63,742 nucleotides of DNA from Amphiscolops sp. MND2022 (Eukaryota): NCBI GenBank assembly GCA_964187785.1, contig CAXLNC010001113.1, positions 124,001 through 187,742 on the forward strand, in the 5' to 3' direction. Numbering within the stretch: position 1 is the first letter of the stretch; each line of letters begins with the position of its first letter. Position numbers and translations under genes: made by a program. Positions 3,101 through 45,597 of this stretch are shown one piece after another. Below the pieces are notes generated by a model that saw only the letters and a program-made list of their open reading frames with translations, had not been told where the DNA came from and made no database searches.

Positions 3101-6074
3101 CAGATTGAATGAAGCCAAGATCTTGTCAAAGGCGCTCATCAGAGTAGTCACACCTGGCAAAGTTCCGCCCATGTGCCGCAACCTTCGAGCTGCCCCCTTC
3201 CAGAGTTGTAGTTTCTGAAAGGTAGATACTACTCCCTGGTCACCAGCCACTGGGTCCTTTACATACTGGTGCAAGTCATCTTCCTCCCTAGATCTTGCCG
3301 GTAACAGACGATGGTAGGCTGTCATGAGTATCAGTCTCACCGGAGGATTGTGCCTCAACATCCTAGCCAAGTCCCAACACTCCTGCGAGATCCCAATATG
3401 CTGAAGCTGAAGATTGACAACGGCCTCTGCTCTGCTATGCCACTGCTCTTCCGGCAACTTCTTCGTCCAATCTCGAGCCGTTGTGCGATCATCCCTTTTC
3501 CGATAGACTGGTAGATCCTGCTGGACTCCGGCAATAACCGCCTGTGCATATAAGGCTGCTGAAGGACTAATGATCCCCATTGCCCGAATGAAGTCAGCTT
3601 CGAAGTTCTGGATCAACGTCGCTCTCCTTACAGAGGATGTCTGGGTTGTAGGGAACTTGGTCGTCCGGAGGTCAAGCGCTACCCATTTTTCTTCTCGAAC
3701 ACATTCTCGAGCATTCACCTGACCCACATCTGGCAGGCTTCCTTCTGTCATATCCTGCAGTACGGTTGCCCAAGCTGCAGGTCCTGACGTGTCCATGCCC
3801 TTGCAGAAGTAGTCATCGAGCGGAGAGGAACCTTCATCTTCTTGTTTCACCCTCCACTGAGAAGTTCCATTGCGTTCATGCCCTCCAGACTCCTCAGGAT
3901 GCCTTCCGGCCTCATTTCTCTGGTCTTCTCCTCGGGAAGAACTCCCTCTGAGTCCCTGACCAAATGCCGGTAACTCCGGAGGTAGATCAACGAATGGCAC
4001 TCGACCTCTTGGGGCTTGTCGTACTGGAGGAGGCATGACACCGCTTATCGCTCCACCCTGACTCTGAGGTGCCTCTCGGGCTTCAATAATACGCTGTATC
4101 CGGGCGTCCAACTCAAGGTTGCCATAAGCATGATCCTGAGCTTCATCACCTTCACTAGTTCTTTCCGGGAGTGCCCTCTCGATCAGGTCAACGCGGCATA
4201 CGTAATGTACATCGTCATCCGATCCTCTCCTGTACACAGATAGTCGATCACCCTCTGCCTGAAGGAACTCATCATCGGCTAATGGACGTATCACAGTCCC
4301 TTCCGGGTAATTTCCTTCAATAGGAAACCGAAAAATCAGACTGCCCTTGCCGATGACCATCTTCGCTTCCTGCTCTCCCAGGACAACCACTTCACCCACG
4401 CGAAAGGCATCCGGCGCTTCAACTTCGACTCGAAGATCGCCCTTCATCGCTGCTGCTGTTAACTTCGTCAGTCTCAGTCGCTTCGGTGTCGGTTGTGACG
4501 CTCCCGCTTGATGAACCTCCTGAATCATTTTGTGTACACGGTCCATATACGCCTCTACCGCCTGGAAGTCCCTCACACTGTCATCTTGCCAACCTGAAGT
4601 CTGCTGCTGATGGCGGGTCAATCTTCCTTCAATCTTGGCTAGTCGGTCCTCAAGGCCTCGCTGAACCTCATCAGAGATCCCTTGATGCCCTTCCGGCTGG
4701 GGTTCTCTCTTACAAATTCTGAGCTCCTGCTGTAGCTGGGAAACCCGCTGATCGCCATCTCGAACCTTCCGTTCCAACGTCTCCACCTGTTGAAGAGCCT
4801 TCCCGAGATCATGTCGAAACGTCCCCAATTGCTCCTGATAATCGGAAACGTCAGGCATTTCCTTCTCAGGTGCCTCTCGGGCTCTCTTAAGCTCCTCGCG
4901 GATTTCGTCCATCTGAACTCCCAGTTCGAAGATCAGTTCCTTCATCTCGAGAACCTCATTGTCCCTGACTTGGATGTCCGCTTGATAGTCATTAGCGCAC
5001 TGACTCAACACCCCTATCTCAACAGCTTGCTGTTCGTGTCTGGCTCGAAGTTCGCGCACCTCTGTCTCATGCTGTTGACTCTCAATGCCGACCCTTCTTT
5101 CCAAACCTTCGATCCGCTTCCGGGCATTGACCAGCTCGCCGACGATTTCATTGACGCGTGACATCACCTGTTCCACCTTCCGTGAACCCTCTGCACACTC
5201 TGACTGAAGCTGATGCAAGTTCGTCAACACTTCTGATACGACTTGGTGTACCATTCCGGCATCACATTTTTTGTTCTGTCAACGAACCCAGCTTCATCAT
5301 CCCTTCATGCAGATAGTCGCACGCTTGCCTTAGGATGTGGATAGCTGACTCCATGCCTTCTAACTTCACATGGCTTGCCAAGGGCCACGTCTGGGCGCAT
5401 TGCGTATACGTGCGCTCCACCGTGCCCTGTTCTGTCTTCACCTCTTGCCACTGCTGAAGAATGGCCTGTACGCCTGCCTCTGTATCTGTGCCACTTCCCA
5501 CAGGATGGGCACTTGATGCACTTCCAGCAACCAGGTTTGGGCTCATAACCTGTGTAGGGACTTGAATAATCGAAGGCGATGAATTAGCTCTCGTAATTGG
5601 AATGGTATCTGCGCTATCATCAAAGCCCCTTTCGCTGGCAGCTCGGGCTCTTACAGGTGGAACCATCTCAAAAGATGAACTCCCCACTGCATCCCCGACT
5701 GGTGTATAAGGATGTGCACGTTGTGGCCCACTTGTGGGAGTACTGGCAGGGACAATTGAACCTTCAGAAATGGGTACTTCTGCGGCGTCAGTGACTAGTG
5801 TTCTGAGGCGAGGGGGTCCTGGGATGTTAGTCCGACCCCTTTCCTTCCTTTCTATTTCGGCAAGACTGGTCTTAGCTCTGATCCGCCTTTTGATGCGAGG
5901 GCTTAAGGACGAACCCTCAGTATTAGCTGCGCCCCGGGCATGCACATGCCCAACTACCAGATCTTCTCCCAATGGGAGGCGCGGTCCCCCTATTCCCGAT
6001 TCCACCATGCCTCTCGGGCCGGTGAGATGGTACTGGGGCCGCCCCTTCCGGGGAAAGGTTCTGTGTGAGACCAC
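3100..6074 (-). CDS. Gag-like region of copy A (coiled coil plus conserved core); 1-nt frameshifts near 5270 and 3100
   Basis: ORFs 5262..6074 and 2990..5254 align with the B/C Gag (PLDDYFCKGMDTSGPAAW, FEADFIRAMGIISP, VSTFQKLQLWK). Confidence 0.8.
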
Positions 6075-6331
6075 TAACTTGTGACAACGAGATTCTGGCT
6101 ATGTGCTCACAACGATTGTTCCTATGATGTACCACTATCCTCGATATCCAGGCGTCACGCTCCTGCACTTCCTCGATTGGAAGTCTAAGCCCACATGGCT
6201 TGAGGAGGTGACAGTTCGTCATGCAAATGGATTCAAGTCAAGGACAGAACCTCTCCTGCACCTGACTCTGCAACAAGCTCTACAGATTGCCCGAACCCCA
6301 AGGGGCTTGCAAAGAGAGAGGCCCATTGACA
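6075..6331 (-). repeat. 5' terminal/LTR-like leader of copy A
   Basis: Begins TGTCAATG and shares blocks (TGGGGTTCGGG, CAGGTG, TCAAGCCATGTGGGCT, GGTACA) with the B and C leaders; the LTR 3' boundary cannot be defined. Confidence 0.6.
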
Positions 6332-7547
6332 GGGTTTGTAAACCAGTTTGCAGGCCATATGTGAATTGGCCCCTTTCTTGGATAATGGAGTGGGGCCATT
6401 GTTGAATACAGTTGAGTAGGAGCGAAACGCAAATTTGGTGCCCAGCATGGTGGGCTTGGCTTTTTAAATCATAGTGTTGCGTTCGGGCCAATCTTGTGGC
6501 CGTAGAGCTTTGCAATGATAATATTTTGCTTGGGGCTGGGACAAAAGCCCATCAACACCCTGCTCACATGAAGAACATGTCTTTGCCGAAAGAAATGCCA
6601 TCCGGACACAAATCTATACAGCTTCACCACGTGAAGTGTACGCTCTCAGGAATCTATGCGTTTACAGGTTTGTATGTCTAGCAGATTAAGTGGGCATAAA
6701 GGCAGCAGGCATTACATGACCAAACTTTGAGTGTATAGATTTGCGCCGGGGTGAAATGGGCCACCAGCAAGAAATTGGGTGGCAGATGTCCACCATAGGC
6801 CTGGAAAAAGTTGTCGAGGAGGCCAGCAATTTATTCCAAAACATGTTCTTTCTGTGGTGGTGGTGGTGGCGCGGTGGTGGTGTGTGCCTTTTGCTTCCTT
6901 GCGCCATTGCATCTCGGAGTTTACAGCTAAAGGAGCGAGCATTAGGGTGCGAAAATCAGCGCGCCTCATGTGGTCATCCTTGCAAAAAGTACAGATGAGA
7001 CGCCCAATTCCCTGAGAAAATCCTTTCCATGGAGACCTCGAGGACGAATAATCCGTCCAGAGATAGGAGAACTAACTCTGAGGGAATTATTATCGCAATC
7101 ATGTTGTGTCAGAGTGCAAACTATGAATACACAGAACAGTGCAATTTCGTGTAATCCGTTTGTAGGTTCTCCTATATTGCCACTCATGCAAAGTAATCCT
7201 AGAGCATTGCCTATAACATTGGTCATTCTCGTTGGGCTTGCCACCACTTGGCACTGATACCCTGCTTTATGTTTCATTCTACAGCTCTGCAAGTACGGCC
7301 CACGATTTCAAGAGAGGACTCCATTGCATTTACGGACACGGACCCTGGTTGGAACCGGATCAATGCCAGCGTGTCTGTGTCCCTACACCATGTGTTATGG
7401 CTGTTAACAGATGTACTTGCAGTGAAGAGACAGTGGCCCTCAAGTGCTTAACTCGTTTGGATGGGGCGGTGGCTGCCCAACCGCATCCTCATCGCACCAT
7501 GAAAGGCTTGGGAGGCACATGCATCATGATGGTATTGATGACATCGC

Positions 7548-7626: not shown

Positions 7627-8029
7627 CACCACTGTGAGTGCGAAGCGCAAGGGTTGGAACTTGCGTTGCTCCTGCCGCAAGGTTACGAATCCTCAAGTGC
7701 AAACTGCACAATCTCAAATCCGCGCCCCGCCAATTCCGATTAACGGTTGACCACTAGACCTTGGGTGGTGGGCCCTACACAACTGCCGGGACTGTCGTGC
7801 AGTTCCTCGATGCAGCGCAGCAGCAATGCTGCCTTTTGCAAACCCCATGACCACATGGGCAAACACAGAAGCAGACACAGACCGCACAACACCCAGTGCG
7901 CAACGCCATGACTATACCTCAACACCAAATCCGCACGAGCATCTTTGTACAGCGGGAGACCACGTGGAGGTGGCGGGGCTCAACTGCCCTCCTTCCCTTA
8001 GAGCAATAGACAGGAAGAAAGATTGAATC

Positions 8030-8037
8030 AGATAGAC

Positions 8038-8092
<55 letters not shown>
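8030..8092. repeat. (ATAG)n microsatellite
   Basis: Direct inspection. Confidence 0.95.
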
Positions 8093-8338
8093 GGGAACAG
8101 CCGTAGGAGCCTGAGAAGGCTCCGGCTGCAGTTCGGGNNNNNNNNNNNNNNNNNNNNNNNNNNNNNNNNNNNNNNNNNNNNNNNNNNNNNNNNNNNNNNN
8201 NNNNNNNNNNNNNNNNNNNNNNNNNNNNNNNNNNNNNNNNNNNNNNNNNNNNNNNNNNNNNNNNNNNNNNNNNNNNNNNNNNNNNNNNNNNNNNNNNNNN
8301 NNNNNNNNNNNNNNNNNNNNNNNNNNNNNNNNNNNNNG

Positions 8339-8750
8339 CGAGGGATCGCCTCTGACAACAAGACAAAGGACAATCCCCACACCACCATCATGGAGATGCA
8401 AGCCCCGAACACCTCAACCTGCTTGTAGCCATAGCTATAGTCAAGGTCAGGGATCTTCTCTGAGAAGGACAGGGCCAAGATGGAGACAGCAAAGCCACCA
8501 ACATCTGAGAGCATGTGCGCCGCATCAGCCATGATGGCGAGCGAATTCGCGATCATGCCGCCGATGAGCTCAACGAGCATGAAGAACAATGCACAGTAGA
8601 CTGCAAAGCGAAGCTTGCGTTTGTCTTTGGCGTGCATGTCTTCCGGTGTGCCCTCGTCGGAACTCGAGTCGCAATGGCCATGACCGCTCTCCTCTTTATG
8701 GCCGTGCTCGTGATCATGGGAATGGCCATGTGTGCTCCCATGCCCGTTAC
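8339..8750 (-). CDS. Exon of a cation diffusion facilitator (SLC30/ZnT/MTP-like zinc transporter): His-rich N-terminal part plus TM1-3
   Basis: VELIGGMIANSLAIMADAAHMLSDVGGFAVS..YSYGYKQVEVFGA matches the CDF signature (SLAxxADAxHxLxD; YGYxRxE-like). The frame extends upstream as GNGHGSTHGHSHDHEHGH to a TAAG|G acceptor-like site at 8751; the downstream end abuts an N-gap. Confidence 0.85.
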
Positions 8751-8974
8751 CTTAGCAGGTCAGAATCGCGAAACGTGGCCTGGAACCGCCAGAATTTCTG
8801 CAGCGAGAAGCACAAAAGCGAGTCGAATCGCTATCAAGTTCCAAGTAGCATCGCAGAGAAATTGACTTGGAATCGCCAATCCGAATGGCAACCTATCAAT
8901 AGTTTAAAGCTACTTCCGCGCAACCTTGGAATCGCCCGATTCTCGATTCTGAATTGCCAATTCAGCGCCACTAA

Positions 8975-9745: not shown

Positions 9746-10094
9746 GTGTGTTTGTACCTATATGGCCGGTCATGAGGATGCCGGGGCAATGACCGGCCAT
9801 ATAGGAACAAACACACCCAAATTTGTACCCCCTCGCAGGGGGACGACCACCCATTGGACCTACTTAAACGGGGATGTGCAAATTCGGGTGTGTTTGGAGC
9901 GCCTAAGGCCACCAATGGGCAGCCCGCATCCGTCACCTCATGTGAAAACACTCTGCAACTTCAAACCCCAAATTTGGTCAGAAATTATCACATCACGTGA
10001 TGCCGAAAGTACTTGTTTTTAAGGCTCAAGGACGGCATGTGATGTGATAATTTTGGATTCTTGGCGTTTTTTTGAGCAGATTTTGGCCGGAAAG

Positions 10095-10411
10095 TGTCAA
10101 TGAATGCTCTCTCCTAAACCCCGGTTTTGCGTCATTGGGGTCGGGATACAGAGTGTTGAGCAGAGACATGACTGCTGACAGGCAGGTGAGGATCTGTCTG
10201 GTTTTGTTGCATGTGACCTTTACATGCATTCGCCCTCACAAGCCATTTAGGCTAAGTCTCGGTCAACAGACCGAGGAGAAGGGCGGTACAGATAGCCACA
10301 AGGAAGGTTAGCATCATCACCAGATTGATAGCAGCATCAACACGCCTATTGAGCCATATCCTAGATAGACAGTAGTGACATCCAGCCCTCTGCCTTTCCC
10401 TGTGTGGACTG
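10095..10411 (+). repeat. 5' terminal/LTR-like leader of copy B
   Basis: Homologous to 56307-56620 and 6075-6331; the upstream flanks are unrelated among the three copies. Confidence 0.65.
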
Positions 10412-13400
10412 ATGGCAGAAGGGTCTGGTCACCTTCCAAATCCCGCAATGGGCAGAGACCTCGTGGCTGGCCATATTCACAAAGACCGTTATGGTCGCAG
10501 CCCGGCACCAGCATCGAGCCATCGCCCTGTAGGGAGAAAAAGAGTCCAAGCATCAGCAGATAGATCTCCTAAGCGGGTAGAACCTCCAGAATTGCCCAGG
10601 TTGAGAGCCCTAGAGGCACAAGCAGCAGCAATCCCTATCTCTAGTTCCGCGGCATCCTCCACCTCTCCCAGAAGCGGATCTTCTCGTGTCAATCCATACC
10701 CAATTGGGGAGGCTACCGAGAGCTCACCCTTGAGATTGTGCCCTCTGTGGCTACCCAAGCTACCCAATCTTGGGAACAGGGAGGATCATTGGATTTGACC
10801 CCGATAAGGAACGAGACTAGCCCTACCACTCCTTCCAATAAAACCATACAGGTTATGAGCCCAAACCTGGGTCAGGGATTGGCATCAGGTTCGACTCAGG
10901 TTGAAGAGGGAGAGATAGAGATGGATACCGCAATGGCCAGAGCTATTCTTCAGTCATGGTCGGAGACAAGGGCTGAAGATGGAACAGTGCAGAGAACATA
11001 CACTCAGTGTGCTCGTGAATGGCCTCTGTCAGAAACGGATTGAAGCTGCACTAAATGTTCTGAAGCGTGCTTGTGAGTATCTCCATGAAGGCATGATGCA
11101 GATGGGAAAGACAGTTGAACAGAAGGCCAATATTCCCAGTGTGGAGGCCGCTGTCAGAGAACTTGCTCATCACACTCAAGAGGTCCGTAATGGAGTGCAA
11201 CGAACAGTGACTCGCCAGACTGAGTTCTCCAACAGGCTGGACAGCATGACAGAGCACAATCAGGAAGCTCGTGGTCGTATGGAGGCATTGTCAGCCCAGG
11301 GTGATCAAGGAGGACGAGAACACATGGCCCTCGCTGTGGAGTATAGGCACTCAATAGACGAGACTCAACGAAAGGTGATTCAGTTGGGGAGCCTTATGGA
11401 ACATTCCCAAGTGGACACTCAGAGACTCGACAAGGGTCTGACTGATCTACGAGAAAATGTCTTCAATAATAGTGTGGCTATTGATCACCTAAAGGAGGAC
11501 ACGCAGCGCGAAGTAGCGAAGCTGAGTACCCTGAGTGGTCAAGCAACAGACATGTCAGTCTATCAACGGCATGCTGCCAGTCACGATCAAGCGCTTACTC
11601 AGTGCCGTACTCAGCTGACAACTCAGGCGCAGCGACTCGATGAAAGTGAACAACACCTTCGGCGTCTCCAACAGGAAGTGGCAGGCTTGACGGGTGAGCC
11701 GACTCCTCGAGTGGAGCAGGGCATCCCGAATCGAGATCCAGAGTTGGCCATCCGCCTGTCACAGCTGGAGGAAGGATTGAAGACTCAGCAAAGGGCGATG
11801 AAGCAGCTCAAAAGGGACAATGCTGAAGACGCCAAGGAGGTGAAGCAGTACCTAGACCAGGTACATGACCTTCTCACTACGACCCTCGAGGCAGTTGGCT
11901 CTACAACCTCCGAGCGGGCTACAGGAGGGATGACGAGGTTGTCCAAGGTGGCCAAAAGAGGAGATTTTAGAGTTGACGTGGAAGACAGTGACTTCTGCAA
12001 GGTGGGAGAGATTGTCCTTATTGGGGGTCAGGAGGCGAGAACAGTCATGGGTAAGAGTAGCCTTATCTTCAAAGTGCCACTGGATGGGGAATATCCCGAA
12101 GGAACGACTGTGAGAACCCTGCGGGAGAATGAATTTCTTCAGCTGGACGGTGAGAATGTGTATGTCTATGCGCAGGATTCAGAGGGACAGAGTCATATGG
12201 TGTGTGGTGTGGACTTGATGCATCGAGCACCCCCTGAGTGGGCAGAAGAAAGGGATGATGTCCAGGACCAAGTCTATTCAGATGACCTGGATCAACGGGT
12301 CCAGAGGGCCGTAGACGCTAGAATGGCGACTCCGAGGCCAGTTGTCTCGGGAGCAGGAGGACCGATGGTACCACCATGGACAGCATCCCATGCCCATGAA
12401 TGGAGTGCCTCGAATGGCCAGACAAAAATTCCTGTGTTGCCTTCTTTTGGAAAGAAGGAGGAAGGTGAGCCAGCGCAGGAACAAGGAGCATCTTATCAAG
12501 GCTGTGTCAAGCAAGAGGAGGATGTTAAGTTCGAGTCCCTGGATGACTACTTCTGCAGAGGAATGGACTCATCAGGACCAGCTTCATGGGATAAAATCCT
12601 TCGAGAAATGGAGCAGAATTCCCTTGAAGACGTGGGCACCATGAATTATCGAGAAGGAGTACGAGAAGAGAAATGGGGAATGTTGGACTTGAAGAGTATA
12701 CAGTTCCCAAAGGTGACCGCTCAATCGGTCAAAAGGGCGACCTTACTGCAGTACTTTGAGGTGGACTTTATCCGAGCTATGGGTATTATCAGCCCTGCAG
12801 CGGCCACCTATGCCAAAGCAGTGATTGCTGGTGTCCACAGAGATCTTCCTGTCTATCGCAAGCGAGATATGAGCACGACTGTCCGCGACTGGACCGGGAA
12901 GATGGTTGAAGAACTGTGGCATACACGCGCTGAAGCAGCGGTGAACTTAGCTTTACAGACAGCAGGGGTATCAGCAGAATCCTTGGAGATGGCGCGAATG
13001 CTAAGGCATGACCCACCAGTGAGGTTGATATTGATGACGGCTTATCATCGGCTGCTGCCCTATCAGTCTAGAGAAGAGGAAGAATTGCAGCAATATGTGA
13101 GGGAACCCCAGGTGGGCGATCAAGGAGCAGTGTCTACTTTTCAGAAGCTTCAGGCATGGAAGAGTGCTGGTCGTCGCTTAAGGCAGATGGGAGGTATGCT
13201 GCCCGGTATTCCTGCCTTGATGACTGCCTTTGACAAGATTTTAGCGGCCTTCAACATTCACAATCAGAGAGGGAATTGGTTCTACCAGACGGAGAGGAAC
13301 CTTCTTCCCATGGTGGACGCGACTCCAGGCCAAGCTGCATTCTTCTTCCACACCGTCGAGGTCAACTTGAACCAGGTCACGACAATGGTGAGCTATCTCC

Positions 13401-13658
13401 CACCTTCTGCTGCGAAAATCCATGCTGTGGATGCAAAGCCCAAGGCAAAGCCTAAGCCAAGGGCAAAGGCTAATAGCTCAGGGGGGGGGAACATCTGCTC
13501 CCACGAGCCCACCGCCTTCCTCTCCAGTGAAGACGGAAGGTCCGATTCCAAAACCTAATGCCCAGGTGGCCGAAAAGGGAGGCTCACCCGGAAAAGGTAA
13601 GAGCAAGGGAGCGGGATCAAGCACTGATAGACCGCCAGTGAACAAGAAGGGCCAACAG
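10412..13658 (+). CDS. Gag-like protein with Ser/Pro-rich N-terminus, long coiled coil (~11100-11900) and conserved core; frameshifts near 10735, 11030 and 13485
   Basis: ORFs 10412..10798, 10738..11043 and 10979..13558 together match the single copy C ORF; position upstream of the zinc finger and protease. Confidence 0.75.
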
Positions 13659-13715
13659 TGCATTCGGTTCTACCGAGGAACTTGCTCACGAGGTGACCAA
13701 TGTCAGTATGGACAT
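13659..13715 (+). other. CCCH zinc finger (C-x7-C-x5-C-x3-H) at the nucleocapsid position
   Basis: CIRFYRGTCSRGDQCQYGH, conserved in all three copies. Confidence 0.85.
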
Positions 13716-13869
13716 ATTCTTGGGACAGATGGAAAGCCCTTGAAGATCGCTCCGGAATTGCTGGAAAGGTATGACCGGCATTCAGCAGCGAGACGGGAGG
13801 GCAAGAAGCCAGAGACGACCGTGACGGCACAGATGCTTATGCTGAACGCCATTGAGCAAGCCGACTCTT

Positions 13870-14190
13870 GTTGCTTCTGCCTGCTGGATACTGGCGCGAA
13901 TGCCTTGGTACTTCCTCGTAAGGGAGAGATGTCTGGTACTGAAGCTCATTGCACTGTCCCGGGTGGCACCATGGTTCCCGGAACAGTTGTCCAGACACTC
14001 CGGTATGGGGAGGATGACTATCACGTTGTGGCTATTGAGGGTGCGTCTCCACTGATGCCACTATCATGGCTGATCTTGTTGGCAGGATGGTCCTACATGC
14101 CAGTGGTGAAGGATGGGAAAATGGAGGTGACGATCGCATCCCCGAGGGGACTGTCTGTGACGCTTGTCGAGCGTTCAAAGATGCATTATA
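13870..14190 (+). CDS. Retropepsin-like aspartic protease domain
   Basis: CLLDTGANALV, with the catalytic DTG starting at 13887. Confidence 0.88.
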
Positions 14191-15169: not shown

Positions 15170-15620
15170 TGCCTTGATGACACGGGACTTCAATACCGCG
15201 ATGGGTCTGCCGAAGGGCGAACTTCCTCAGTGCGTGGGTCAAGACAGGGGTTCCGTATATGGACAAATGCTGCGTGAAGAAGTTCAAGAAGTGGAAGAGG
15301 CCGTAGCACGAGGCATTCTTCATGAAGTGCTGGCCGAGTCCGTTGATGTCCTTTACCTTGTGTTCAACTTGCTGCAGGAGTGCGGCCTTGAGAGAGCTGT
15401 TGATCCAGCCTTCTCGCTGAAGCACGAAGACAACATGAAGAAGCAGCATGAGACAGTGACGCACCTGGCTTGTACCAGGAACGCATATGCTCAGTCTACT
15501 GGGAAGTCTGAAAAGGAGTTGGCGTTCACTGTCTCCAGAACTGAAGGAGGTAAGTGGCTCTTGTACTCCCAGGGCAAGCTGATCAAGCCTCATGACTATG
15601 TCTCGAGTGACTTTGACTCC
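15170..15620 (+). CDS. All-alpha MazG/DR2231-like NTP pyrophosphatase (dUTPase-like) domain
   Basis: EEVQE-x15-ESVDVLY (ExxE..ExxD), KHEDNMKK, GKLIKPHDY. Confidence 0.78.
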
Positions 15621-16260: not shown

Positions 16261-16403
16261 TACCTGTTGAGAATCTGCTCATGTTGGTCCCCTACAAGAC
16301 TCATCTGCCGTTTGTGGGTATGACAAGTATTGGACAGTCGCCCTTAGTGGCAGAGGACATGGCTCACAAGGCCAACTCCACGGAGTTGGTGTCCCCTTCT
16401 CTA

Positions 16404-16445
16404 TGACAAGTACGGGCCCTCCTTAGGTCTCCTGAGGAGGTGCCC
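16404..16445 (+). promoter_or_regulatory. Putative stop-codon readthrough signal: TGA-CAAGTA, 7-nt spacer, hairpin 16414-16445
   Basis: Upstream and downstream ORFs are in the same frame; an identical arrangement is present in copy C. Confidence 0.8.
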
Positions 16446-16454: not shown

Positions 16455-16583
16455 TGCGCAGTGTGCTTTCGCCCATGTGCCCTCTGTGGCCCGAAGCATT
16501 GCATGCTGTGTTACCGTCGAATTCACCCATGGTGTGCCACGTCCCCACATGACGATGCACATCCCATTGTGTGCAGATTTTGC
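16455..16583 (+). other. PHD-like zinc finger with an extra CxxC, N-terminal to the integrase
   Basis: CAVC..CALC..CMLC-x4-H-x2-C-x12-CRFC. Confidence 0.7.
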
Positions 16584-16899: not shown

Positions 16900-17750
16900 C
16901 AGACCACAAATTGGACCATGGTGTTCCGGATCCTAAATGTGACTATTGTAAAAGAGCTCTGGGTCCCTTATACAGACATTCGGCCCTGAAGGAGTCAAGG
17001 GAGATTCCGATCCTCACATTTGATTTCTCAGGACCGCACCCCTCCACAGTGCATCCTGCCAAGCAATTGATGGTTATTGTTTGGTGCCTGAGGGAGGTGC
17101 GACTGATTTGGGCAATGGGCGTAGAAAATAGAGATGATCCCCATGTGGTCGCCGGATTACAGGTTGCTCTTGATGATTTGTCCAGCTTAACCGGAGGTTG
17201 CCGAGCACCTGTCCTGCGTCTTCATTCCGACAAAGCAAAGGAGTTCCTTGCGACAAGTGTGCGAAAATTGTTGCGTTCTCATGGCACACGCCAGACCACC
17301 AATTCCGGGTACGATCCTGCCGCAAATGGCATAGCTGAGCGATGGGTAGGTATTATCAAGGTCCGTGCAACGGCACTGCTGGCAGAGCATCGACTTCCTC
17401 CGGACTATTGGACATATGCCTGCAAATGGGTTGCCTATGTGCACAACCATCGTGTTCTGAGCATTCAGCTTAATGCCAGTTATCCACTTTTTGGAGATGT
17501 GGTGGTCGTACATCGTTTCTTGAAGAAACCACCGAGCTTTGAGGATCGTGGGATCACTGGAGTTTGTTTAGGACGCAATCCGTTAGTTTCTGGAGGGGTG
17601 ACAGTGGGAACGGTCTCGGATGGCCTTTTTAATGTGATTGTCACTGCCAAGGTCCGAAAATTGGGGGAGCGTCGTCCTCAGCGATGGAAGCTTCATGTGC
17701 ATCCTACGGAGCCTCGAGCGGCCGCCTATGTGCGCAATGATGGGGAGATC
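16900..17750 (+). CDS. Integrase (HHCC plus DDE core)
   Basis: DHKLDHGVPDPKCDYC; TFDFSGP; LHSDKAKEF; NGIAERWVGIIK. Confidence 0.92.
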
Positions 17751-19181
17751 CGATGGAACCTGAACGACTTAGACGTGGCCACTGTGGAAGAACTGGAACC
17801 AGAAGGTGCCGTTGAAGTGCAAAATCTCCGTTCTCTCGGAATGGGCTGGGCATGGTATGTGAATGACCTCAGCAAATATCTTCCGGATGCGGAGACTCTA
17901 GCCGCAATGGCCCCCACAGATGACGATGTCGTGGGTGTGGATCATGATGTCCCATTGAGTGAGATTGCTCTGGAACCTGAGAGGGTGGATGTGCCCGTTG
18001 AGATCGACCCTTATACAACTCCACTACCTTTTCCTCATGCCGCGCCTGGCCCAGCTGAATATGAGACACTTGCCGGTATGGCACCAGATTTGCTTCCTCG
18101 TTCACAAGATGTGGATCTGGTCGTGGCGGCAATGGATATTCCTCTAGCACCAGCTCTACGTGCTCACTTGAAGTCATGGACGCGCGAAGACCTGAATGTA
18201 CGAGTGTTTCAAGGTGTTCGTCGTGGAGGACCTCCTTCTCACCGCGTCTGGTGTCGTGAGACATATGAGATGAATACTGGCAAGCTCATTGCGCGGGAGT
18301 TCTACAATCCTGATCAATCTTCTTTGGTTCGTTTGCCCACACCGGCACTTCCAGATTGTACACCGATGAATGCCGACCGTCGATCGATTCGCAGTATCTT
18401 CTGGTATTCTGAGACTGATGTCTTGCCCTCCCACCTCTCCCGACTTGTTCCTGGCCGTGTTCTGGCTTCTGCGGCTCCTGCGGGCGGACCTCGCCTACCC
18501 ACCTCGGTCCGGGGGGAGGGTGGTGAGCCGCATATGGCATATGATGCTCAGAGCCAGCAACGTCAGGACTTGACGCCAGATTCCGGGGGAGCCTCAGCGA
18601 AAGGGCAAGAGTCTCCTACCGAAGCTGGAAGCGGGGGAGCTGTGGGCCTCGACCAAGAAGAAGTTCTCTCACAAGATAGCTTTGAGACTGCCATTTCTCA
18701 GGGCTACCGAACAGAGGATGAAGAGGGAAATTGGGATTCCTCCGTTTCCTTGGTGCACCTCGGGTGGTTGAACGTAGAGCTGAAGTCTGACGACTGGGTC
18801 AAGGTAATGGATCAGCCACCGGTCCGAATCATGAAAATCACAATGGATGAGGATAAGAACCGCAAGAACACGAAGAAATTTGTGGTTGAGGAGAATGACC
18901 AAGGAACCTCGGTAAAGACCTATTGTGTTACTGGTCTCGATACGAGTAAGCAACTGGAACTGGTGGAGGCATCGTTTCAGTTGAGATGCAGGATCTTCGA
19001 ATTCAATGCGGTGTCCTTTGCGGCCATTCCTTTGGAACTGGTGCCCCTAGAGGTCGACTATGTTGATGCGTTGTCAAAGCAAGACGTACCGGACTATTTT
19101 GCTGGGCCGTCAATGGCTAAGACACTGACACAAGAGACCCGGGTGGTATTTGGACCGGAAAAGGGGGAGTAGAAAGCAGCA

Positions 19182-21101
19182 ATGCTGGCTGAACTACAAT
19201 CTTTTGCCAAACTGGATGTGTATGAGGCAGTTTCCCGTGCGGACGTAGGCCACCAAGAAATACTTCCTGGCAGGCTGGTTCTTGTGGTGAAACCCAATCC
19301 AGAGGGCGTGAAAGGGAAGAAGAAGGCAAGAATTGTGGTGTGTGGGAATTTCCAGACTATTCATCAGGATGAAATGACCTCTTCAAAGACTCCTTCGTAT
19401 CCTATGCTGAGAATGCTCTTGTCCTTAGCTTCATATCAAGGTTGGCCGATAGAGACGTGGGACGTATCAACAGCTTTCTTGTACGCCAGGTTGTATGGGG
19501 ATAGGGATACGGACCTTGATGGTCAATACATCTATATGAGGCCGCCAAAGGTCATTGAGAAGCTTGGTCTGTTACCGGAAGGGACGATATGGAAGTTGAA
19601 GAAGGCGCTTTATGGATTACGTACTTCACCGCTTGCTTGGGAAGTTGAGAGAGACAATACCCTTGCACAGCTCCAATGGGAAGTTGAAGAACGATGGTAT
19701 GGTTTGGTTCCTGCAAAAGGCAATCCCTGTCTATGGGCGATCGTTGAGCTTGATGCGGGAAATCATTGTGTGCCCGGTGTGGCCAGGCCATCTGCACAGA
19801 CTCTGAGAGCCGAAGAACCAGGGCAGCCGTCAATGGCCAAGAAGTATCGCACAATAGGAATTCAGACAGAAGGTCAGGAGAAACCTGTGAGGTTGCTAGG
19901 AGGACTGGTCATGTATGTGGATGACCTGTTGCTGGCAATGCCGGAATGGCACTTAAGACCTGTGGTGGATCTATTGTTAAAGAAGTATGTTATGAAGCAG
20001 TCGGGTGTTCTCCCTAGTGGGCCACAGAAACAGGATGTGCAGATTGGTTTCCTTGGATGTCGAATAACCAGAGACCAGTATGGTATCATTTTCTGTGACC
20101 AAGAAAAGTACATCCAACACTGCATGCATGAGAATGGGTTTGTTGGTGCAACGCAACAAGTGACGTTGAAGCCCTTTCACCGACCACCCGAAGTGGATGA
20201 GCGACTGCCTGAGGAAGTCTTGTCAGAAGAAACCAAAAGGAAGCATGTTGCAGAGTGCCAGAAGTACATAGGCCAACTGATGTGGCTGGCCACAAGGACA
20301 AGGCCAGACATCTCAGCTGTCCTAGGCATCTGCGCTTCCTTCATATTAAAGACTCCTCAGAAAGTGGCCAATCATTTAGTTGATTTGTGGAGATATGTGT
20401 GGACAACTCGTAGGTATGCAATGTCTACCCTTTCTCCCGCTATGGGCCCATCAAGTAGTTCTCCTCTTCCCGCAATGGGCTCGACAACAGGAGACCAACA
20501 TGGAAGCGATGTGGGTGAGAACATACGTCAAGATGGTTGCCTTGATGGCAGTGAAAGATTATCAATTGACAGACCGGAGTTTCACATCCATGCTTATACC
20601 GATGCCAGTTTTGCTACGTCAGGAGGGAGGAGTCGTTCGGGATTTCTTGTCTGTCTGGTTCAACCTGAAACGGGCGAGTATTCTGTTTTACAATGGTCCT
20701 CGAGGAGACAAACAATCACAGCGTATTCAGCGCCTGAGGCTGAGATAGTGGCAATGTCTGAGGGCATCATGACATCTATCTTGACGTATGATGCAGCAGA
20801 GTTTCTGGGTGTGTGTGTGGGTATAACTCCATTCTTGAAGATCCCAATGAAGACAGACAGTGACACTGGCCTGAAACAGTTAAAGAATCAGTCCATTGTC
20901 GTCAGGAATCGACCTCTCACCAAGAATTACAGCTATTTGCATGATGTGTGCTATGGGACACTGCTCCATCCCCCGTGCATTGAACCTTCATTTCTGCCGG
21001 GAAAGGTACAGAAGGCTGACGGAATGACCAAGATTTTGGGACGGAACCTTCAAATGGAGTTCATGGCCATGTTAGGTATGCGCTCCCCTTCTTACCTCTA
21101 A
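19182..21101 (+). CDS. Copia-type reverse transcriptase plus RNase H; preceded by a copy-specific TAG at 19170
   Basis: KARIVVCGNFQ, WDVSTAFLY, LKKALYGLRTSP, YVDD; RNase H AYTDASFA, WSSRRQ, SAPEAEIVAM, TDS, KADGMTK. Confidence 0.95.
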   Translation: MLAELQSFAKLDVYEAVSRADVGHQEILPGRLVLVVKPNPEGVKGKKKARIVVCGNFQTIHQDEMTSSKTPSYPMLRMLLSLASYQGWPIETWDVSTAFLYARLYGDRDTDLDGQYIYMRPPKVIEKLGLLPEGTIWKLKKALYGLRTSPLAWEVERDNTLAQLQWEVEERWYGLVPAKGNPCLWAIVELDAGNHCVPGVARPSAQTLRAEEPGQPSMAKKYRTIGIQTEGQEKPVRLLGGLVMYVDDLLLAMPEWHLRPVVDLLLKKYVMKQSGVLPSGPQKQDVQIGFLGCRITRDQYGIIFCDQEKYIQHCMHENGFVGATQQVTLKPFHRPPEVDERLPEEVLSEETKRKHVAECQKYIGQLMWLATRTRPDISAVLGICASFILKTPQKVANHLVDLWRYVWTTRRYAMSTLSPAMGPSSSSPLPAMGSTTGDQHGSDVGENIRQDGCLDGSERLSIDRPEFHIHAYTDASFATSGGRSRSGFLVCLVQPETGEYSVLQWSSRRQTITAYSAPEAEIVAMSEGIMTSILTYDAAEFLGVCVGITPFLKIPMKTDSDTGLKQLKNQSIVVRNRPLTKNYSYLHDVCYGTLLHPPCIEPSFLPGKVQKADGMTKILGRNLQMEFMAMLGMRSPSYL

Positions 21102-21279
21102 TGGTGTGTCTCGTCAATTACACGTAATGTGTCGCATGTTGTGCTAAGCTGTGTTTCCTTGGTGGACTGTGTTTGAGAGAATGACTGATGAGATTGAGGC
21201 TGTTCCCGTTATGGGCTAATATTTGTGTGTCTGTCTGGAGCCGTTTACAGGAAAGAGGATCAAGGGTGGCGGTGCGATT

Positions 21280-24200
21280 ATGTCCCACAGGGGGGAGGGA
21301 GCCATCTATCAGGAGGGCCAAGACCGGCCTTCCCAACCTGTTGCCTCTAGTCGGCAAAGGACAAGCACAGCTGGTGCAACTGAGATGGCCCCGAGTGGCA
21401 TTTCTACAGCATCATCCACGCAACCGTCACCACCTCTTCCAACCAGTGACCTACCTAAGGAAGTGCCGCATATGGCAGAAGGAAGGTCACAAATGACCGT
21501 AAAACTCGATCAAGCAGTAGATGCGCGACAATTAGCTGCGCATGATGTGGTACCACGGCTGAGAATACAGCTTGAGGAGATCTTTGAGCCTTCCCCTGTG
21601 GACCAGGTCGACTTATCTCAGACTGTCAATAGTCGAGTGATTATCATTCATGGCCCCACTGGAACAGGAAAATCGACAGTGATCCCATGGGAAGCTATGA
21701 GATGGCTGGAAGAACACTGTTCCCGCAGAGGACGCAAAGCTGGTAGGGTGATTTGTTCACAGCAGAGGAGGAAAGTTACCATCTCCTTGGCCCAGGAGGT
21801 CCGACGTAGACATGGCGAAGTTGGAGTCTCCACAGTGGGCTATCATGTGTCAAGAGACCGCCAAATCACGGATGACACTAGATTGGTTTATCTCACTGAG
21901 GCTATTGGTGTCTTCTCTCTGCTGAATAACAGATCGCCCGGTGTGGCCAATCCGCTAGCAATTGTGATAGCAGATGAAATCCATGAAAGGACCATGTACA
22001 CACAGATGATCATCGGCTTGGCTCGAGATCAGATGTCTCGTAGCACCGGAATGGTCTTGATCCTCATGTCTGCGACAGTTGATATGGAGGAATTGAGAGA
22101 TGCCCTTCCAGGAGCTCGGGAGATTGAAATTGGGAAGCATGAGTTCGCAGTGCACCGCTATTACCTCGAGAGGCCTGTGACTCAGTCTACCAATATTCTT
22201 GAGCAGACAGCACGACTAGTGGTGACCCTGCACCATCAGCATGGCACAACAGATCTGGTGGAGGGTGTCCCGAGCGGCCAATTCTGCGACCATTTCTTGG
22301 TATTTTGTCCAGGCAAGCCTCAGATGAGGGTTCTGGCTTCTATCTTGATAAGATGGCAGGAATTGGGATATACTCGGGGACTGGAAATTGTCCAAATGTC
22401 GAGTGGAGAGGACCCTCGGACCTGGGAGTACTTTGACAAAGCAGTGACAGACTATCCCGTAATGGGCCGTGATCGACCATACTACATGAGTCCTCATGGC
22501 ATCCAGAAAATGAAGCCAAACGCGGGCAAGAATGGTCCACAATATCCTCCCTATGCGGACAAGGACATCGTGACGCAATTATCCCATGTGGTCAAACGGA
22601 AAAGGAAGGTGGGGCTGACGACCAATGTCAACCAGACCGGAGCCACTCTGACTTCGGTTGCTGTGGTGATCTCGACGACAGGCGTCAGGACATGCTCCCC
22701 CAACTTGAGATCCAAAGAGGAGGTCAATTGCATCCAGACGGTGTCCGTGAGTGACCTGATTCAACAGGGAGGAAGGGCTGGACGTGTATGTCCCGGAGAA
22801 CATTATGTGATGGCTTCAGAATCCCAGGTGGTCGGACAGTTTCGAGGAGCAAGTGCACCAGAGCTGCTCAATGCCGATGTGGCACCGCTCATTAGCATTT
22901 GCAAGAGGATCAACATAGATCCACTCAACTTTCCGATCTTGAACATGCCGGATGAGAAGGTGTTGGGAGCCACCACACAGCGAATGAGAATGCTGGAGTT
23001 GCTAGACGATGACGGCAATCTCACCCATCTGGGACAATCACGACTGGTGTTGGACTATACCCCAGAGTGGGCCCGCTTTATTGCCAAGGCATTGGAGTAT
23101 GGAGTGTCGGAGGGAGCTATCCGAATTGCGGCGGTGCTATGCCGAGAAGAAGATCTATACACCCCACATGTTCGTGAATCTCTTTCCCATGTGGACGGTG
23201 ATGTGATGACAATCCTCCATTTGGTATGGTTGGCTGAAGGAATCTTGAAGAGGTTTCACATCACACGAGTCCAGGCACTATCCAACCATGATGCCGCAAA
23301 GGCAACCCTTGAGCGGGCAGGCCTACAAGTCAAAGGGGTGATGCAAGTCATGCAGAACATTGAGCAGCTGCGTGAGTCAATTGCAAACTCAGATCTCCCG
23401 CGTGGGCCCTTGAGGAGATCCTCGGACAAATGCTATGCGACCCTGCTGGTGCATGCTTTGTGGGAGGGGTTCTACATGAATGTGATGATCAAGAGCTTCA
23501 CTGGACAGTACGTGAGCCCTACCTATGGAGGCGAGTGGAGCATCAGCAAGACCACACTGCAATATGCACCCTTGGTGGTCCTCCCGTTGAAGAAGACGAT
23601 CATAGATGGGAACCCTTTCCTCCAGTGGATCACCCCATTGCCAGTTGAGTGGCTTGTCGAACGAGATTGGTGGATCCAGACACATTGGGAGGATAATGAC
23701 TGTCGCATGGTTTACCGCAATCTGGTCGCATGCCCGATATTGCGAGACATGGTGAGCACGGCAAGGCTGTACCCTGGTGGTCGAATCAAGATCATTGAGC
23801 TGAAGGCTATCCCACCAGTGGAAGAAAAGCCGCCAATGGCCGTGACCATCGATAATTGCGCAGTCATGTTGAATAGGTACCTCCTCACAGCCCGAGAGCT
23901 GGAAATCATCTTCGACTTGGTCTCGAGTGACTACTTGGTAACTGCATATGTGTCAGGCTCATATGTCTTGAACAACACGGTCAAGAATGAGGTCACAATG
24001 CAGGTTCTCAAGTGGACAGTGAGCACTTCCAAGTCCAAGAAGCCGTACAAACTGAACACCATTGACAAGCCATCTGTCCAGACACTTGGCGCTTACTCTT
24101 TCATTCCCCGTGAGGACTATCATCAGGAAGCCTGGTTGAGTGGTGGTAGAGAAGTGCAGCTTAAGTCCAATGCGGAAGACCTGGCCTTGTCGCGGATGTG

Positions 24201-27200
24201 GGGCTCCGTTGATGACACAGCCCTTGAAGAGACGAATATGTTCCAGACGGATGCCAGAGACTTGGCAGCAGACCGAGAAGCGGAGGAACATGAGGATAAC
24301 TTCGACTGCTATGGAGAAAAGGAAGTTTCCTCGATGGACAGCATCTTCAAGGAGAATGAGAAGCTCACCAAATGCCGCGAAGGGCACCAGGTCTACGGGT
24401 ATTGTGCTTGGTGCGACGCATCGATACTGAACCCGAATAAGCTTTGGAAGCATTATCTGGACTCACATCAGGTCCTGATGCAAGTGGCGCCTATGTCTCC
24501 TCCAAGCGTGTGGCAGACCCTGATGGGAAGAGAGATGGGAGCGAGAACACCTCAGTTCCAGACACCGCAGGGTCAGTACAAGTACTGGGTACAACCAGCA
24601 AAGAGGGATGGCATTGATACTTTTGTTATTGGGACTACCCAAAGGGGAAACGAGACCCTGGTATCTCTTGGAGAATTGTTTTTGGCAGACAACGGTGCTC
24701 TGCCCTTGGTGGCCACGAGCCCTGCAACACAGGTGCTCTCTCCAAGACAAAAGCCCCCTAATTGCGTGAGGGTTGCCCTGGGTGGCACTGATTACTGGAG
24801 CAAGGTAAAGCTGTATGATATGAATACGCTCCTCTCAATTGGGACCCCAGTCACATCGGACATGGCATTCTTGACGATGTTCAGCGAGTGGGGAGATATC
24901 CAGGGTGGTAAACAGGCTGGAAGAGGAGAGTACAGTTCAGAGGAACTGTATGGCATTCGTCGCTATCCCGACCAACTGAGAATGATGTCTCAAGAGGTGG
25001 AAGATGTGATGAAGTCCCGTGTGGCACCTCTAGATGTTCTCAGGGTTCGAGTGCCACATTGCTCTATGCCGGCCCCAGAGGTGTTGCAGGCGAGAATTAC
25101 ACCAGCCTACCACGAGGATAAAGGGGAAGCAAGGGGGTTCCTTCGTTGTGCCATAGCGGCTAGGCAGCAGAAGGGATATTCGGACTGTTCCACATGCCCC
25201 GAGCGGCAAATCTTCGATCACTTGTGGTTGGATGATTCGGAGTATGTGGCAGAGAGCACACTCCCTTCAAACCCCTTTGCGGGCCAGTGGACTTACGCTG
25301 ACAGCACAGAAGGCGAGAAGTGGAGATGGCTCACCCATGTAGACGTCTGGAGCGTTGCTCAAGAAATTCAGAGAAAAGGGGTGAAGTCAGAACTCAACTA
25401 CCACGAAATGGCAAAGCGGGACAGTGTGAGAAGGGTATGGCCAGTTAGTTTGGTGAGACATCCAGTCCCCAATGAGGCGTCTTCCAATGCCGTGAAGAAG
25501 GTATTGGATCAGTATCCCTGGGTGGACTCCGGCTTGCAGTGGAAAGGCACTATGGTCTTCAAGGAGAGCCCTGGTGAAGACAGGTCAACTCTTTTCGATA
25601 CCACCAAGAAGCCTGGAGTCAAACCCCTGAGCGGGCCTCCCAGTTCTAGCCAGGATGCTTCGTCACTTTCTGCTCCTCCAGCAAAGGCAATGCCTAGTGC
25701 TTTGACAAAGGCTGACACGCCTGCTGGAAAGGCAACTAGTTCAGGGAGGCCAGCAAGTGAGCCCGATATCAAAGACAAGGGAGATGGGACCGCAGGACCC
25801 AAGCCATCTACTCCCTTGAGGGCCGCTTCAGAGTCAGGAATTACTGATCCAACCAAGAAGGAGGATACGTCTGCTGGTCCAAAGGCCGCCTCAACGACAG
25901 TGAGTATGCCGACATCTTCTCCGAAACCCTCGTCCTCAGTGGCATCTATGCACACAGCATCAAGCGCCATGCCAAAGGAAAAGGCTTCATCTGAAGCAAC
26001 TCCGATGTCAGCACCTCCAGCCAAACCCAAGGCAGGACCGGAGACAGGAGGTCTGTCGACCTCGAGAGCCCCGAGTGGTGCAGCAAGCCAGTCGTCTGTG
26101 ACTGCAGGATCCGGTTACCCGACCATTGCAGAGTCGTTGGGACAGAAAAAGGGTCCACCGTTGAAGGCAGCTCCATCCTCGAAGACAACGACAGCGCCTT
26201 CTACCAAGTCAGAAGATACTGGTCATGCTGCCGCGAAAGGCTCTACTTTGGTACCTCCCAAGGATAAGGCTGAACCATCAAATCCACCATCTTCAACGGC
26301 TTCAGTCTCGCAGGTGAAGGAGCCAGCTCAGCCAGCAAGGGCTCCTCGAGCCCCTGCAGTACAACCACCTGTTGAAAAGGATGCCGCGATGTCCTACACT
26401 GAGCAGGTCATGAAGCAGGCTGCCTCAGCAGTTCCCACAGGCAAGCTCACGGATGAGGACTTTGAGAGGATGGCTCAGGAAAGGTGGCAGAGGATACTGG
26501 CTGAATCAACTACCTGTGTCTCAGGCAAGGCTGCGTCTGTTGCTCAACTTCCTCAAGAACTACGAGGCGAGATTCTGCCACCTCAACCATTGTTCTCACC
26601 GATCCGCGGATGGATAGACGGTCTGACACCACCAGTTCACAAGGAAGGTCGAACAATTGAGCTCTCTTTGCCCGGTGTGGTCGGTCTCTTCAAGTGGACA
26701 TTCTTGGCCGAAAGCAGGCACGCAAAGAGACCCGCCCGTACAAGGGTGGAGAGACCAGGCCCTGAGCAGCTAGGCATGGATGCGCTCATCATGATAGTTG
26801 ACCGTTCCACTGGAGATCGCATTCCCTGGAATACCGGTGTGAAGAAAGAGCTGGAAAGAGGCGCATATGCGGCGAGCTATGATCGCGAGAATCCAATGCC
26901 TGGAGACAAGAAGATCATCTTGCACATGCAGCCTATCTCTTACCTGAGCGATGCGAACAAGATTGCATGGATACGAGCATTCTTGGCATGGGCTTACAAG
27001 GCTGTGTTGATCCAAGATGTGAATCCCCAGGTGGGCATGTCCGTTCACACCGGAATGGTGCATTTTCTGAATGAAATGTACTCCCGAGTGAGCGTGAAAG
27101 GAGCCAAGCCACTATCAGAGGTTGGCCAAGGGATTCCGGTTTATGCATCTGGACAGGAGATTCGGACCGGTCGAGAGGGATTGATGACCTCGGATTGGGG

Positions 27201-27463
27201 TAATCCACTCTTCATAGCGGCAGGCCGGAAGATTGTGGACTCCCTTTTCACAGGAGCAAGCTCGAAGAAGGAATCAGACTTGGGTGACAGAATGGAGTCT
27301 GCCTTCAATCTCAGCTTCTGGGAAAAGGAGGGAGCTTTCGACTGGTCTTGGCTCGGTTTGGATCTCGTGAATGAGCGCATGACTGAGGAGCTGTTGGTGT
27401 CCCTTGAGTGGAGTTGTTATCGAGAGTCGGAGATCCAGTTGATACAGACGTTCCTGGACATCT
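21280..27463 (+). CDS. Intronless DEAH/RHA (HrpA-like) SF2 helicase ORF2, >2000 aa, C-terminus truncated
   Basis: GPTGTGKST (21652), DEIHER (21973), MSAT, FCPGK, TTNVNQTG, QQGGRAGR (22762), HA2-like LTHLGQ..LDYTPEWARFI; C2H2-like CAWC..H..H (~24400); low-complexity linker ~25600-26450. Confidence 0.9.
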
Positions 27464-27817
27464 ATAAAGTCCACCTCAAAGTACTGCAGTAAGGTCGCCC
27501 TTTTGACCGATTGAGCGGTCACCTTTGGGAACTGTATTTCTTCAAGTCCAACATTCCCCATTTCTCTTCTCGTACTCCCTCTCGATAATTCATGGTACCC
27601 ACGTCTTCAAGGGAGTTCTGCTCCATTTCTCGAAGGATTTTATCCCATGAAGCTGGTCCTGATGAGTCCATTCCTCTGCAGAAGTAGTCATCCAGGGACT
27701 CGAACTTAACATCCTCCTCTTGCTTGACACAGCCTTGATAAGATGCTCCTTGTTCCTGCGTTGGCTCACCTTCCTCCTTCTTTCCAAAAGAAGGCAACAC
27801 AGGAACTTTTGTCTGGC
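27464..27817 (-). mobile_element. Inverted near-identical duplicate of copy B gag segment 12417-12771
   Basis: The reverse complement matches 12417-12771 with only a few differences. Confidence 0.9.
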
Positions 27818-45414: not shown

Positions 45415-45597
45415 GGTTACACAACCACCCTTGAACCTCTTCTCCTGCAAACGGCTTCAGACAGACACACACACCTCAGCCCATAACGGGAACAACTCAC
45501 ACATTATCAGACTCTCTTCTCATCACTCTTTGTCCACCAAGGGAACACAGCACAGCACGACATGAGACACATTACGTGTAATTGATGAGACACATCA

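Follow-up and report, generated by a model that had tools for sequence, protein, structure and literature searches.

Structure of the elements in the window

The window, by which we mean the whole stretch of 63,742 nucleotides analysed (C1126:124001-187742 of a 1.07-Gb assembly), contains three copies, A, B and C, of a Ty1/copia LTR retrotransposon, as is evident from the protease - integrase - RT - RNase H order and the copia-type RT. Their features are as follows.

3-3125, minus strand: copy A ORF1a, unbroken from the CCCH finger through the protease, the 2OG-Fe(II) domain (1751-1518) and the MazG-like domain to the window edge
5550-6331, minus strand: 5' LTR of copy A, about 782 bp, TG...CA, overlapping the ORF1a start
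10093-10850, plus strand: 5' terminal repeat of copy B; the primer-binding-site-like motif behind it reads QVMSP in frame
10919-13558, plus strand: ORF1a piece with coiled coil and Gag-like helical region (putative capsid; Atlas leads below 0.9)
13653-13715, plus strand: CCCH zinc finger in a nucleocapsid-like position (Pfam zf-CCCH E 0.001, below cut-off)
13845-14180, plus strand: retropepsin-like aspartic protease, D-T/S-G, Asp and Gly invariant in 22/22 aligned copies
15183-15389, plus strand: MazG-like nucleotide pyrophosphohydrolase domain of ORF1a (Pfam PRA-PH 33.6 bits, cut-off 21.3)
16404-16406, plus strand: TGA ending ORF1a of copy B, the candidate readthrough codon (TGA in 7/7 family-I copies with the junction kept)
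16407-16413, plus strand: 7-nt spacer of copy B, CAA GTA C, which fits CAR-NBA only
16414-16445, plus strand: bulged hairpin of 32 nt, 4 + 10 base pairs, loop of 3-5 nt, the predicted 3' stimulator
16455-16583, plus strand: Cys4-His-Cys3 (PHD-type) finger opening ORF1b, motif recognised by eye
17061-17318, plus strand: integrase core (Pfam rve E 5.5e-5, below the curated cut-off)
19170-19172, plus strand: private TAG of copy B, a product of decay that serves as internal control (no hairpin, -10.6 kcal/mol)
19173-21101, plus strand: RT and RNase H region, closing ORF1b at TAA (Pfam RVT_2 E 8.5e-19, over cut-off)
21220-27492, plus strand: ORF2, DEAH-type helicase and a long unknown region (Pfam DEAD E 2.4e-6)
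50235-50276, minus strand: the same cassette in copy C (TGA 50276-50274, spacer, hairpin 50266-50235)

The LTRs of copy A are direct repeats, 91.7% identical, with the 3' partner about 21 kb away, and the 5-bp sequences at its flanks differ (a target-site duplication check on one complete copy); copies B and C show the 5' repeat only in the stretches read. The CA end of the LTR is followed by a fixed motif, found at 14 places in the 23 sequences scanned, which we take to resemble the half-tRNA-Met site of Drosophila copia; no tRNA gene was found in the window. ORF1a starts inside the LTR (window 5550-6331, minus; 10093-10870, plus; 55840-56620, minus) and passes in frame through the primer-binding-site-like motif (QVMSP) in all three families considered below and in one single-ORF copia (L158).

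In family I, to which the window copies belong, ORF1a is about 2,000 aa long (1,986-2,046 aa in the full-length forms of the database) and follows the order LTR, coiled coil, Gag-like region, CCCH finger, protease, 2OG-Fe(II) domain (below the Pfam cut-off), MazG-like domain, unnamed domain and TGA. The putative capsid domain gave no Pfam Gag match, and the Atlas matches of the Gag region, Ty Gag and Retrotrans_gag at 0.81 among them, stayed below 0.9. The protease had no Pfam or PDB sequence match; the ten best VIA matches of its model (pLDDT 85.5) were all of the retropepsin fold, with Z of 3.0-4.5, and the best Foldseek E was 0.011, and the motif combined with these weak but consistent fold matches points to a probable protease. 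In unbroken copies the Gag-like region, the protease and the cargo domains form one ORF down to the stop (1234+ aa in C1832; 2431 and 2440 aa in families II and III), and the stop lies 840-880 codons downstream of the protease-like domain of that same ORF. The early placement of the stop between MazG and PHD-IN was correct in putting it past the protease and cargo, but the two are not adjacent, the stop being about 340 codons past the MazG-like domain, behind the unnamed domain.

The PHD-type finger that opens ORF1b has no Pfam match in copy B, and 4/8 of its ligands there lie before the first ATG (codon 33). ORF2 is a separate ORF in families I and II and is fused to ORF1b in family III, in which a thymidylate kinase and the helicase are found downstream of the stop, giving cargo on both sides of it. 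One family-III copy (L055-L057, C107:24989-4977, minus strand) has an unbroken ORF1b of 6671 codons, which with ORF1a makes more than 26 kb of coding sequence and comprises a zinc ribbon, the thymidylate kinase, the PHD-type finger, integrase, RT, RNase H, the DEAH helicase and about 3,800 unassigned residues.

Several further observations concern the coding regions. In family III (L054:5883-6602 on C1677, and five other copies) the protease is followed in ORF1a by a domain with G-A-P-P-C and E-H-P motifs like those of C5 DNA methyltransferases; a PDB profile search gave DNMT1 chains only (14/14 rows, best E 0.2), and its model is poor (pLDDT 58). Symbiodinium copia elements are stated to be without DNMT domains (PMC5890265). 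Family II (L049 ORF1a, residues ~2080-2220) has a MazG-like region that can be aligned by eye, lacks the acidic residues and gives no Pfam match. The 120-nt gap between the RNase H and helicase ORFs ends the best-conserved long stretch shared by copies B and C (90% over 681 nt; window 21060-21330 and 45360-45640), and at 27464-27817 ORF2 of copy B is cut short by 355 nt of the copy's own ORF1a in inverted orientation (98% identity to 12417-12771).

The stop codon cassette in copies A, B and C

Copy B reads TCT CTA TGA CAA GTA C at 16398-16413 and copy C reads TCT CTG TGA CAA CCA C on the minus strand, and in both a spacer of 7 nt precedes a bulged hairpin of 32 nt. Re-reading of the sequences confirmed this cassette as it had been given in the preliminary description, with the TGA at 16404-16406, and the stem differences between B and C (U:G/C:G and G:C/G:U) do preserve pairing, as was claimed there. 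The same description had predicted a stop of copy A to the left of the window, and TTG TGA CAG TTA G with the same hairpin is indeed present 50-52 bases past base 1, about 17 codons outside the window edge. The 60 nt 3' of the stop fold with -30.1 kcal/mol in copy B (z -4.8; 0/200 shuffles as good) and -31.2 kcal/mol in copy C (z -4.1; 1/200 shuffles as good). Among the 2069 in-frame 60-nt windows of copy B between 14832 and 21098 the post-stop one ranks 6th by folding, and the two top-ranked windows represent the same hairpin.

The frame had been described as continuing into PHD-IN-RT; it is kept across the stop, but a clean run to the RT exists in neither B nor C. The private in-frame TAG of copy B at 19170-19172 corresponds to TGG in 8/8 other aligned copies (a ninth gave no alignment), and the ORF1a of this copy contains frameshifts. 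Copy C shifts frame about 55-65 codons past the stop, and copy A has a private TAG 7 codons past it, within the hairpin loop. All three window copies are therefore decayed, and the cassette is carried by inheritance. We also weighed a programmed frameshift between Gag and protease and dismissed it, since the shifts of A, B and C occur at differing places and unbroken copies have none.

Conservation of the stop codon across three families

At the junction TGA is kept in 52/54 distinct copies from three related giant copia families of this assembly (7/7 in family I, 20/22 in family II and 25/25 in family III), although the copies are related and such counts overstate the number of independent events. 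Both exceptions belong to family II: one is TAA in a decayed copy, and the other is TCA in a copy that departs from homology about 50 codons later and is without IN-RT in the stretch read. UGA thus accounts for 52/53 of the stops at the junction, unlike the true ends of ORF1b, which vary (TAA, TGA, TAG).

The cassette pattern was found 7 times in the assembly and 0 times in the reversed control, and protein searches from upstream and downstream, made with no stop assumed, led to the same seven family-I junctions plus an eighth copy with the junction deleted. The sister families II and III were reached through weaker integrase matches. Family II yielded 29 loci, 28 of them aligned over the site and 22 distinct; for family III, 30/34 matches were fetched, 28 were aligned and 25 were distinct, and the upstream search added no further junction to this family. 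The stop was scored in neither copy D (junction deleted) nor C1164, C1425, C1019 and C1277 (truncated or deleted), and the same applies to L084, L116 and L117 (no alignment over the site), same-locus duplicates and 4/34 family-III matches.

Of 43 database proteins that reach the family-I ORF1a end, 42 stop at the exact residue and one 12 short; none of the 43 runs past it, and a weak search for longer forms at 2161-5000 aa found none. A profile search among 50% representatives gave 59 matches at 1e-30, without names or context, and a scan of metagenome and viral contigs with the integrase alignment found no locus.

More distant copia lineages of the assembly (five copies) have single ORFs of 1,891-2,436 aa. 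In the midpoint-rooted RT tree, in which the labels of C1164, C1425 and C1019 denote the family and not a stop that was seen, families I-III lie on one side of a 100/100 branch and the seven rows of single-ORF lineages on the other. The RT regions of the three families are 41-49% identical. A single origin of the stop in the three families would be the simplest reading, although their junctions cannot be aligned with one another.

Expression of the sequence past the stop codon

In all three families the reading frame continues past the stop, and the codons that follow bear the marks of two kinds of constraint. In three family-I copies pS is 0.059 over codons +1 to +13 compared with 0.39 upstream and 0.43 downstream, while codons 14-32, located after the hairpin and before the first ATG, have pS of 0.43, pN of 0.037 and pN/pS of 0.09. 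In three copies of family IIIb pS is 0.19 inside the structure versus 0.62-0.76 around it, and codons 20-114, again before the first ATG, have pN/pS of 0.17. On these substitution patterns, RNA-level constraint appears to overlap coding directly 3' of the stop. No ATG position past the stop is conserved, the first ATG being scattered from codon 19 to beyond 150. The presence of protein-constrained codons ahead of any ATG favours readthrough over reinitiation.

The same codons bear on the proposal that ORF1b is expressed from a separate or processed RNA, produced by a stop-removing intron, by trans-splicing or from an internal promoter, with the hairpin acting as a processing or packaging signal. 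There is precedent for it: splicing is described as the established Gag:Pol route of Drosophila copia and BARE1 (PMC3735527), a minor promoter is reported from the Tca2 junction (PMC2194720), and the common G-TGA context would supply a GT donor. The G before TGA, however, is missing in copy B, in 2/22 copies of family II and in 25/25 of family III; a post-stop subgenomic RNA would have no start codon for the constrained codons upstream of the first ATG, given the unconserved ATG positions; and the frame is maintained over the stop in each of the three families. We consider this explanation unlikely.

RNA structures and stop codon context

In each family the stop is followed within 4-10 nt by a paired structure, and the structures differ. 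The family-I hairpin has 14 pairs with 95.9% of cells paired, compared with 50-59% when it is slid; 5/14 pairs have changes on both sides, and its covariation score was reached by 0/500 shuffles. At either end of the lower stem four pairs do not vary and, taken alone, carry no information. The covariation analysis to which the preliminary description had pointed thus speaks for the hairpin, with double changes in 5 pairs. Family II has two adjacent (tandem) hairpins that start 9-10 nt past the stop, are 94.4% paired and mostly invariant; fourfold sites are 95-100% conserved in the stems versus 27-89% upstream, and a loop site is 48% conserved. In family III a 9-bp stem begins 4 nt past the stop and its loop pairs with a 6-nt downstream stretch, 99.5% of cells being paired over the two stems; one pair has double changes, and stem 2 has one-sided changes only, its 3' arm doubling as Gly-Arg codons. 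The length difference within this structure is 3 nt, and without the pseudoknot the folding of two of the three junctions of this family does not stand out from shuffles (z -0.85 and -0.31). We regard it as a candidate H-type pseudoknot on the strength of the modelled pairing; no compact H-type pseudoknot was seen in families I and II.

The sequence context is much less uniform. CAN-NYA follows the stop in 7/7 family-I copies, and CAR-YYA in 4/7 copies of family I, 0/22 of family II and 0/25 of family III. The emphasis initially placed on the CAR-YYA context as a general feature was therefore overstated, the motif being present in 4/54 copies. Position +4 is C in 7/7, 21/22 and 3/25 copies of families I, II and III, respectively, being U, A or C in family III, and the next codon is CUA or CGG in 0/7, 0/22 and 3/25. 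Since CAR-YYA occurs in 4/7 family-I copies and in 0/47 sister copies, the structure and not the hexamer is the shared feature. The predicted stimulators suggest that their type may have turned over between families while UGA and the need for a structure were kept.

Bypass of the UGA without local structure, through basal leakiness, a distant element or an element-encoded factor, would leave the hairpin with some other role. The Tca2 flanking sequence is reported to be insufficient in yeast, and MuLV RT is said in the same source to bind eRF1 and raise readthrough (PMC2194720); three unrelated structures at one site might also mean that none is specific. Against this, pairing 4-10 nt from the stop with suppressed synonymous change is found in every family, and we give the idea only a small chance.

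Two further explanations assign the UGA a specific meaning. It might encode selenocysteine, the hairpin being comparable to the SEPN1 redefinition element, for which a 16-bp stem 6 nt past the UGA is described (PMC3159437), and a SECIS lying elsewhere in the element. The use of UGA in 52/53 stops and the free +4 position of family III agree with such decoding. The codon, however, lies in a linker that varies in sequence (the residue before the codon is L, or one of C/H/N/D/K) and shows no conserved redox motif, and no Rfam family reached the gathering score in the window and in eight 9-10 kb stretches over the element 3' regions, a search that a divergent SECIS could escape; two chance-level Rfam matches lie away from the junctions. 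We find selenocysteine very improbable. The hepatitis delta amber/W site provides a precedent for A-to-I editing, which here would make the UGA of some transcripts a Trp codon (UGI). The exclusive use of UGA fits editing, and RNAalifold pairs the neighbours of the stop with a downstream stretch, leaving the A unpaired; these pairs, however, are invariant, overlap conserved Asp-Ala-Cys codons and show no covariation, and equivalent pairing is unseen in families II and III, so that editing appears still less probable. Taken together, specific recoding of the UGA by the host, whether as selenocysteine via a SEPN1-like hairpin and an unrecognised SECIS or by site-specific editing, has a slim chance of being correct; if it were, a clade of giant dinoflagellate retrotransposons would gate integrase and RT on selenium supply or cell state.

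Programmed readthrough as the probable mechanism

Comparative sequence evidence makes it probable, at roughly 0.8 in our estimate, that the TGA is a programmed readthrough site ending the ORF1a, of about 2,000-2,440 residues, of a giant copia retrotransposon. The preliminary description had proposed this, and the proposal has held: the junction has no sense codon in most copies but TGA in 52/54, 42/43 proteins end there, the hairpin covaries, and codons before the first ATG are constrained. There is next to no chance that the stop is a nonsense mutation inherited by dead copies or reflects a variant genetic code: copies A, B and C are each broken elsewhere and one syndinean dinoflagellate is reported to read all three stops as sense (PMC6394959), but the stop is the sole interruption in otherwise unbroken copies of three families (2,431-2,440 codons before it or 1,634-6,671 after), and TGA is absent among thousands of internal codons. 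The 6671-codon ORF has 121 TGG and zero internal TGA, and the peridinin-chlorophyll protein genes of another small contig terminate in TGA, from which it follows that UGA is not a general sense codon.

Under programmed readthrough, most ribosomes would terminate at the UGA, whereas a smaller share, delayed by the predicted 3' structure of the RNA, would go on into integrase and RT, a near-cognate tRNA decoding the UGA at a few percent. The residue inserted at leaky UGA codons is generally Trp, Arg or Cys. The ORF1a product (Gag-like region, CCCH finger, protease, 2OG-Fe(II) and MazG-like domains) would be made in excess, with Gag and protease one-to-one as in alpharetroviruses, and the protease would release PHD-IN-RT-RH from the rare ORF1a-1b fusion. 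A MazG-like hydrolase at the Gag level would suit cleaning of the nucleotide pool inside the particle, although in family III cargo is found downstream of the stop as well; dinoflagellate host DNA is described as rich in 5-hydroxymethyluracil (PMC11572971).

Comparison with known systems

Most copia elements are described as having one ORF or using splicing (PMC3735527). The closest copia likeness is Tca2 of Candida albicans, whose structural and enzymatic frames are likewise separated by a UGA in frame, with a short spacer and then a predicted 3' structure (PMC2194720). The Tca2 stop is located between gag and pol, whereas here it comes past the protease and cargo, after about 2,000-2,440 codons; the same report found no readthrough directed by the Tca2 junction in S. 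cerevisiae (PMC2194720). In the sirevirus SIRE1, also a copia element, an in-frame stop is read through (PMC2194720), but it follows pol and controls an env-like accessory ORF, while the present stop would gate IN-RT. The fission-yeast gypsy elements Tj1, Tcry1 and Tosmo1-3 share a clade-wide in-frame TGA-C and have single-ORF relatives, and Tj1 transposition is reported to require its stop; they differ in being gypsy, in having the stop before the protease (Pol includes the protease) and in the conserved GAA-TGA-CT context (bioRxiv 2022.12.06.519325).

Among viral systems, type II readthrough of alphaviruses and furoviruses resembles the present case in UGA-C, a covarying stem after 7-9 nt and synonymous-site conservation, and in alphaviruses UGA-C with a stem-loop 7-9 nt downstream is reported to raise readthrough up to tenfold (PMC3159437). 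Families I and II have the UGA-C and the 3' stem-loop of this type and lack its CUA or CGG next codon. Family III resembles the MuLV gag-pol junction (type III) in its purine-rich spacer and compact, here predicted, H-type pseudoknot. MuLV uses UAG, at the protease start (PMC13517186), whereas family III has UGA-U/A/C and not UAG-G, and its stem is closer to the stop, at 4 nt, than the spacing of at least 8 nt named typical in that source (PMC13517186). Type I readthrough (UAG-CAR-YYA, no structure needed) does not apply, the stop here being UGA. By analogy, families I and II may work in the manner of type II, and the family-III cassette in that of the MuLV pseudoknot, though they lie outside the sequence definition of either class. 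Rous sarcoma virus likewise has its protease in frame with Gag and the control point after it (0/-1 pattern), differing in a -1 frameshift with no stop and no cargo enzymes (PMC1224870). The control point after the protease, a central claim of the initial reading, therefore stands as to placement, but its novelty was overstated, this virus being a precedent by frameshifting (PMC1224870).

Full-text literature searching (subscription papers, supplements and Repbase lying outside it) turned up neither this arrangement nor any account of programmed readthrough in dinoflagellate retroelements.

Genomic setting and likely source of the elements

The elements sit on small contigs (14-208 kb among those of known length), with the exception of one RT-RNase H fragment on scaffold C7. 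GC content is 36-38% in the chromosome-scale scaffolds (three 10-kb samples) versus 42-53% in the element-bearing stretches. Another small contig, C579, carries a tandem array of peridinin-chlorophyll a-binding protein genes (L159, L160). We infer that the element contigs are dinoflagellate symbiont DNA within the assembly of a larger host, and the giant copia elements are likely to come from a dinoflagellate alga. The exceptional fragment (L157, C7:67542200-67542790), an RT/RNase H piece 72% identical to family III on a chromosome-scale scaffold of 38% GC, either has been transferred to the host or results from misassembly.

Four family-I copies (D, A, B and C) lie on the one 208-kb contig C1126, at about 94000-181000, with D and A head to tail, and the same contig has a single-ORF copia at about 37-47 kb. 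Between copies A and B, window 7912-8751 (minus strand) contains a His-rich exon, interrupted by N, like that of a cation-efflux (zinc) transporter; the part tested gave no Pfam match.

Implications

If the proposed readthrough is real, a clade of copia elements of 22 to more than 26 kb would have its readthrough site past the protease and cargo and not at the Gag boundary. With three stimulators at the same place in the gene order, the families would then offer a natural comparison of what UGA suppression demands of a 3' structure. Because gene callers break the elements up at the stop, intact copies resemble pseudogenes. The layout implies that the MazG-like, 2OG-Fe(II) and protease domains would be made at the Gag level, and so suggests that they act inside the particle.
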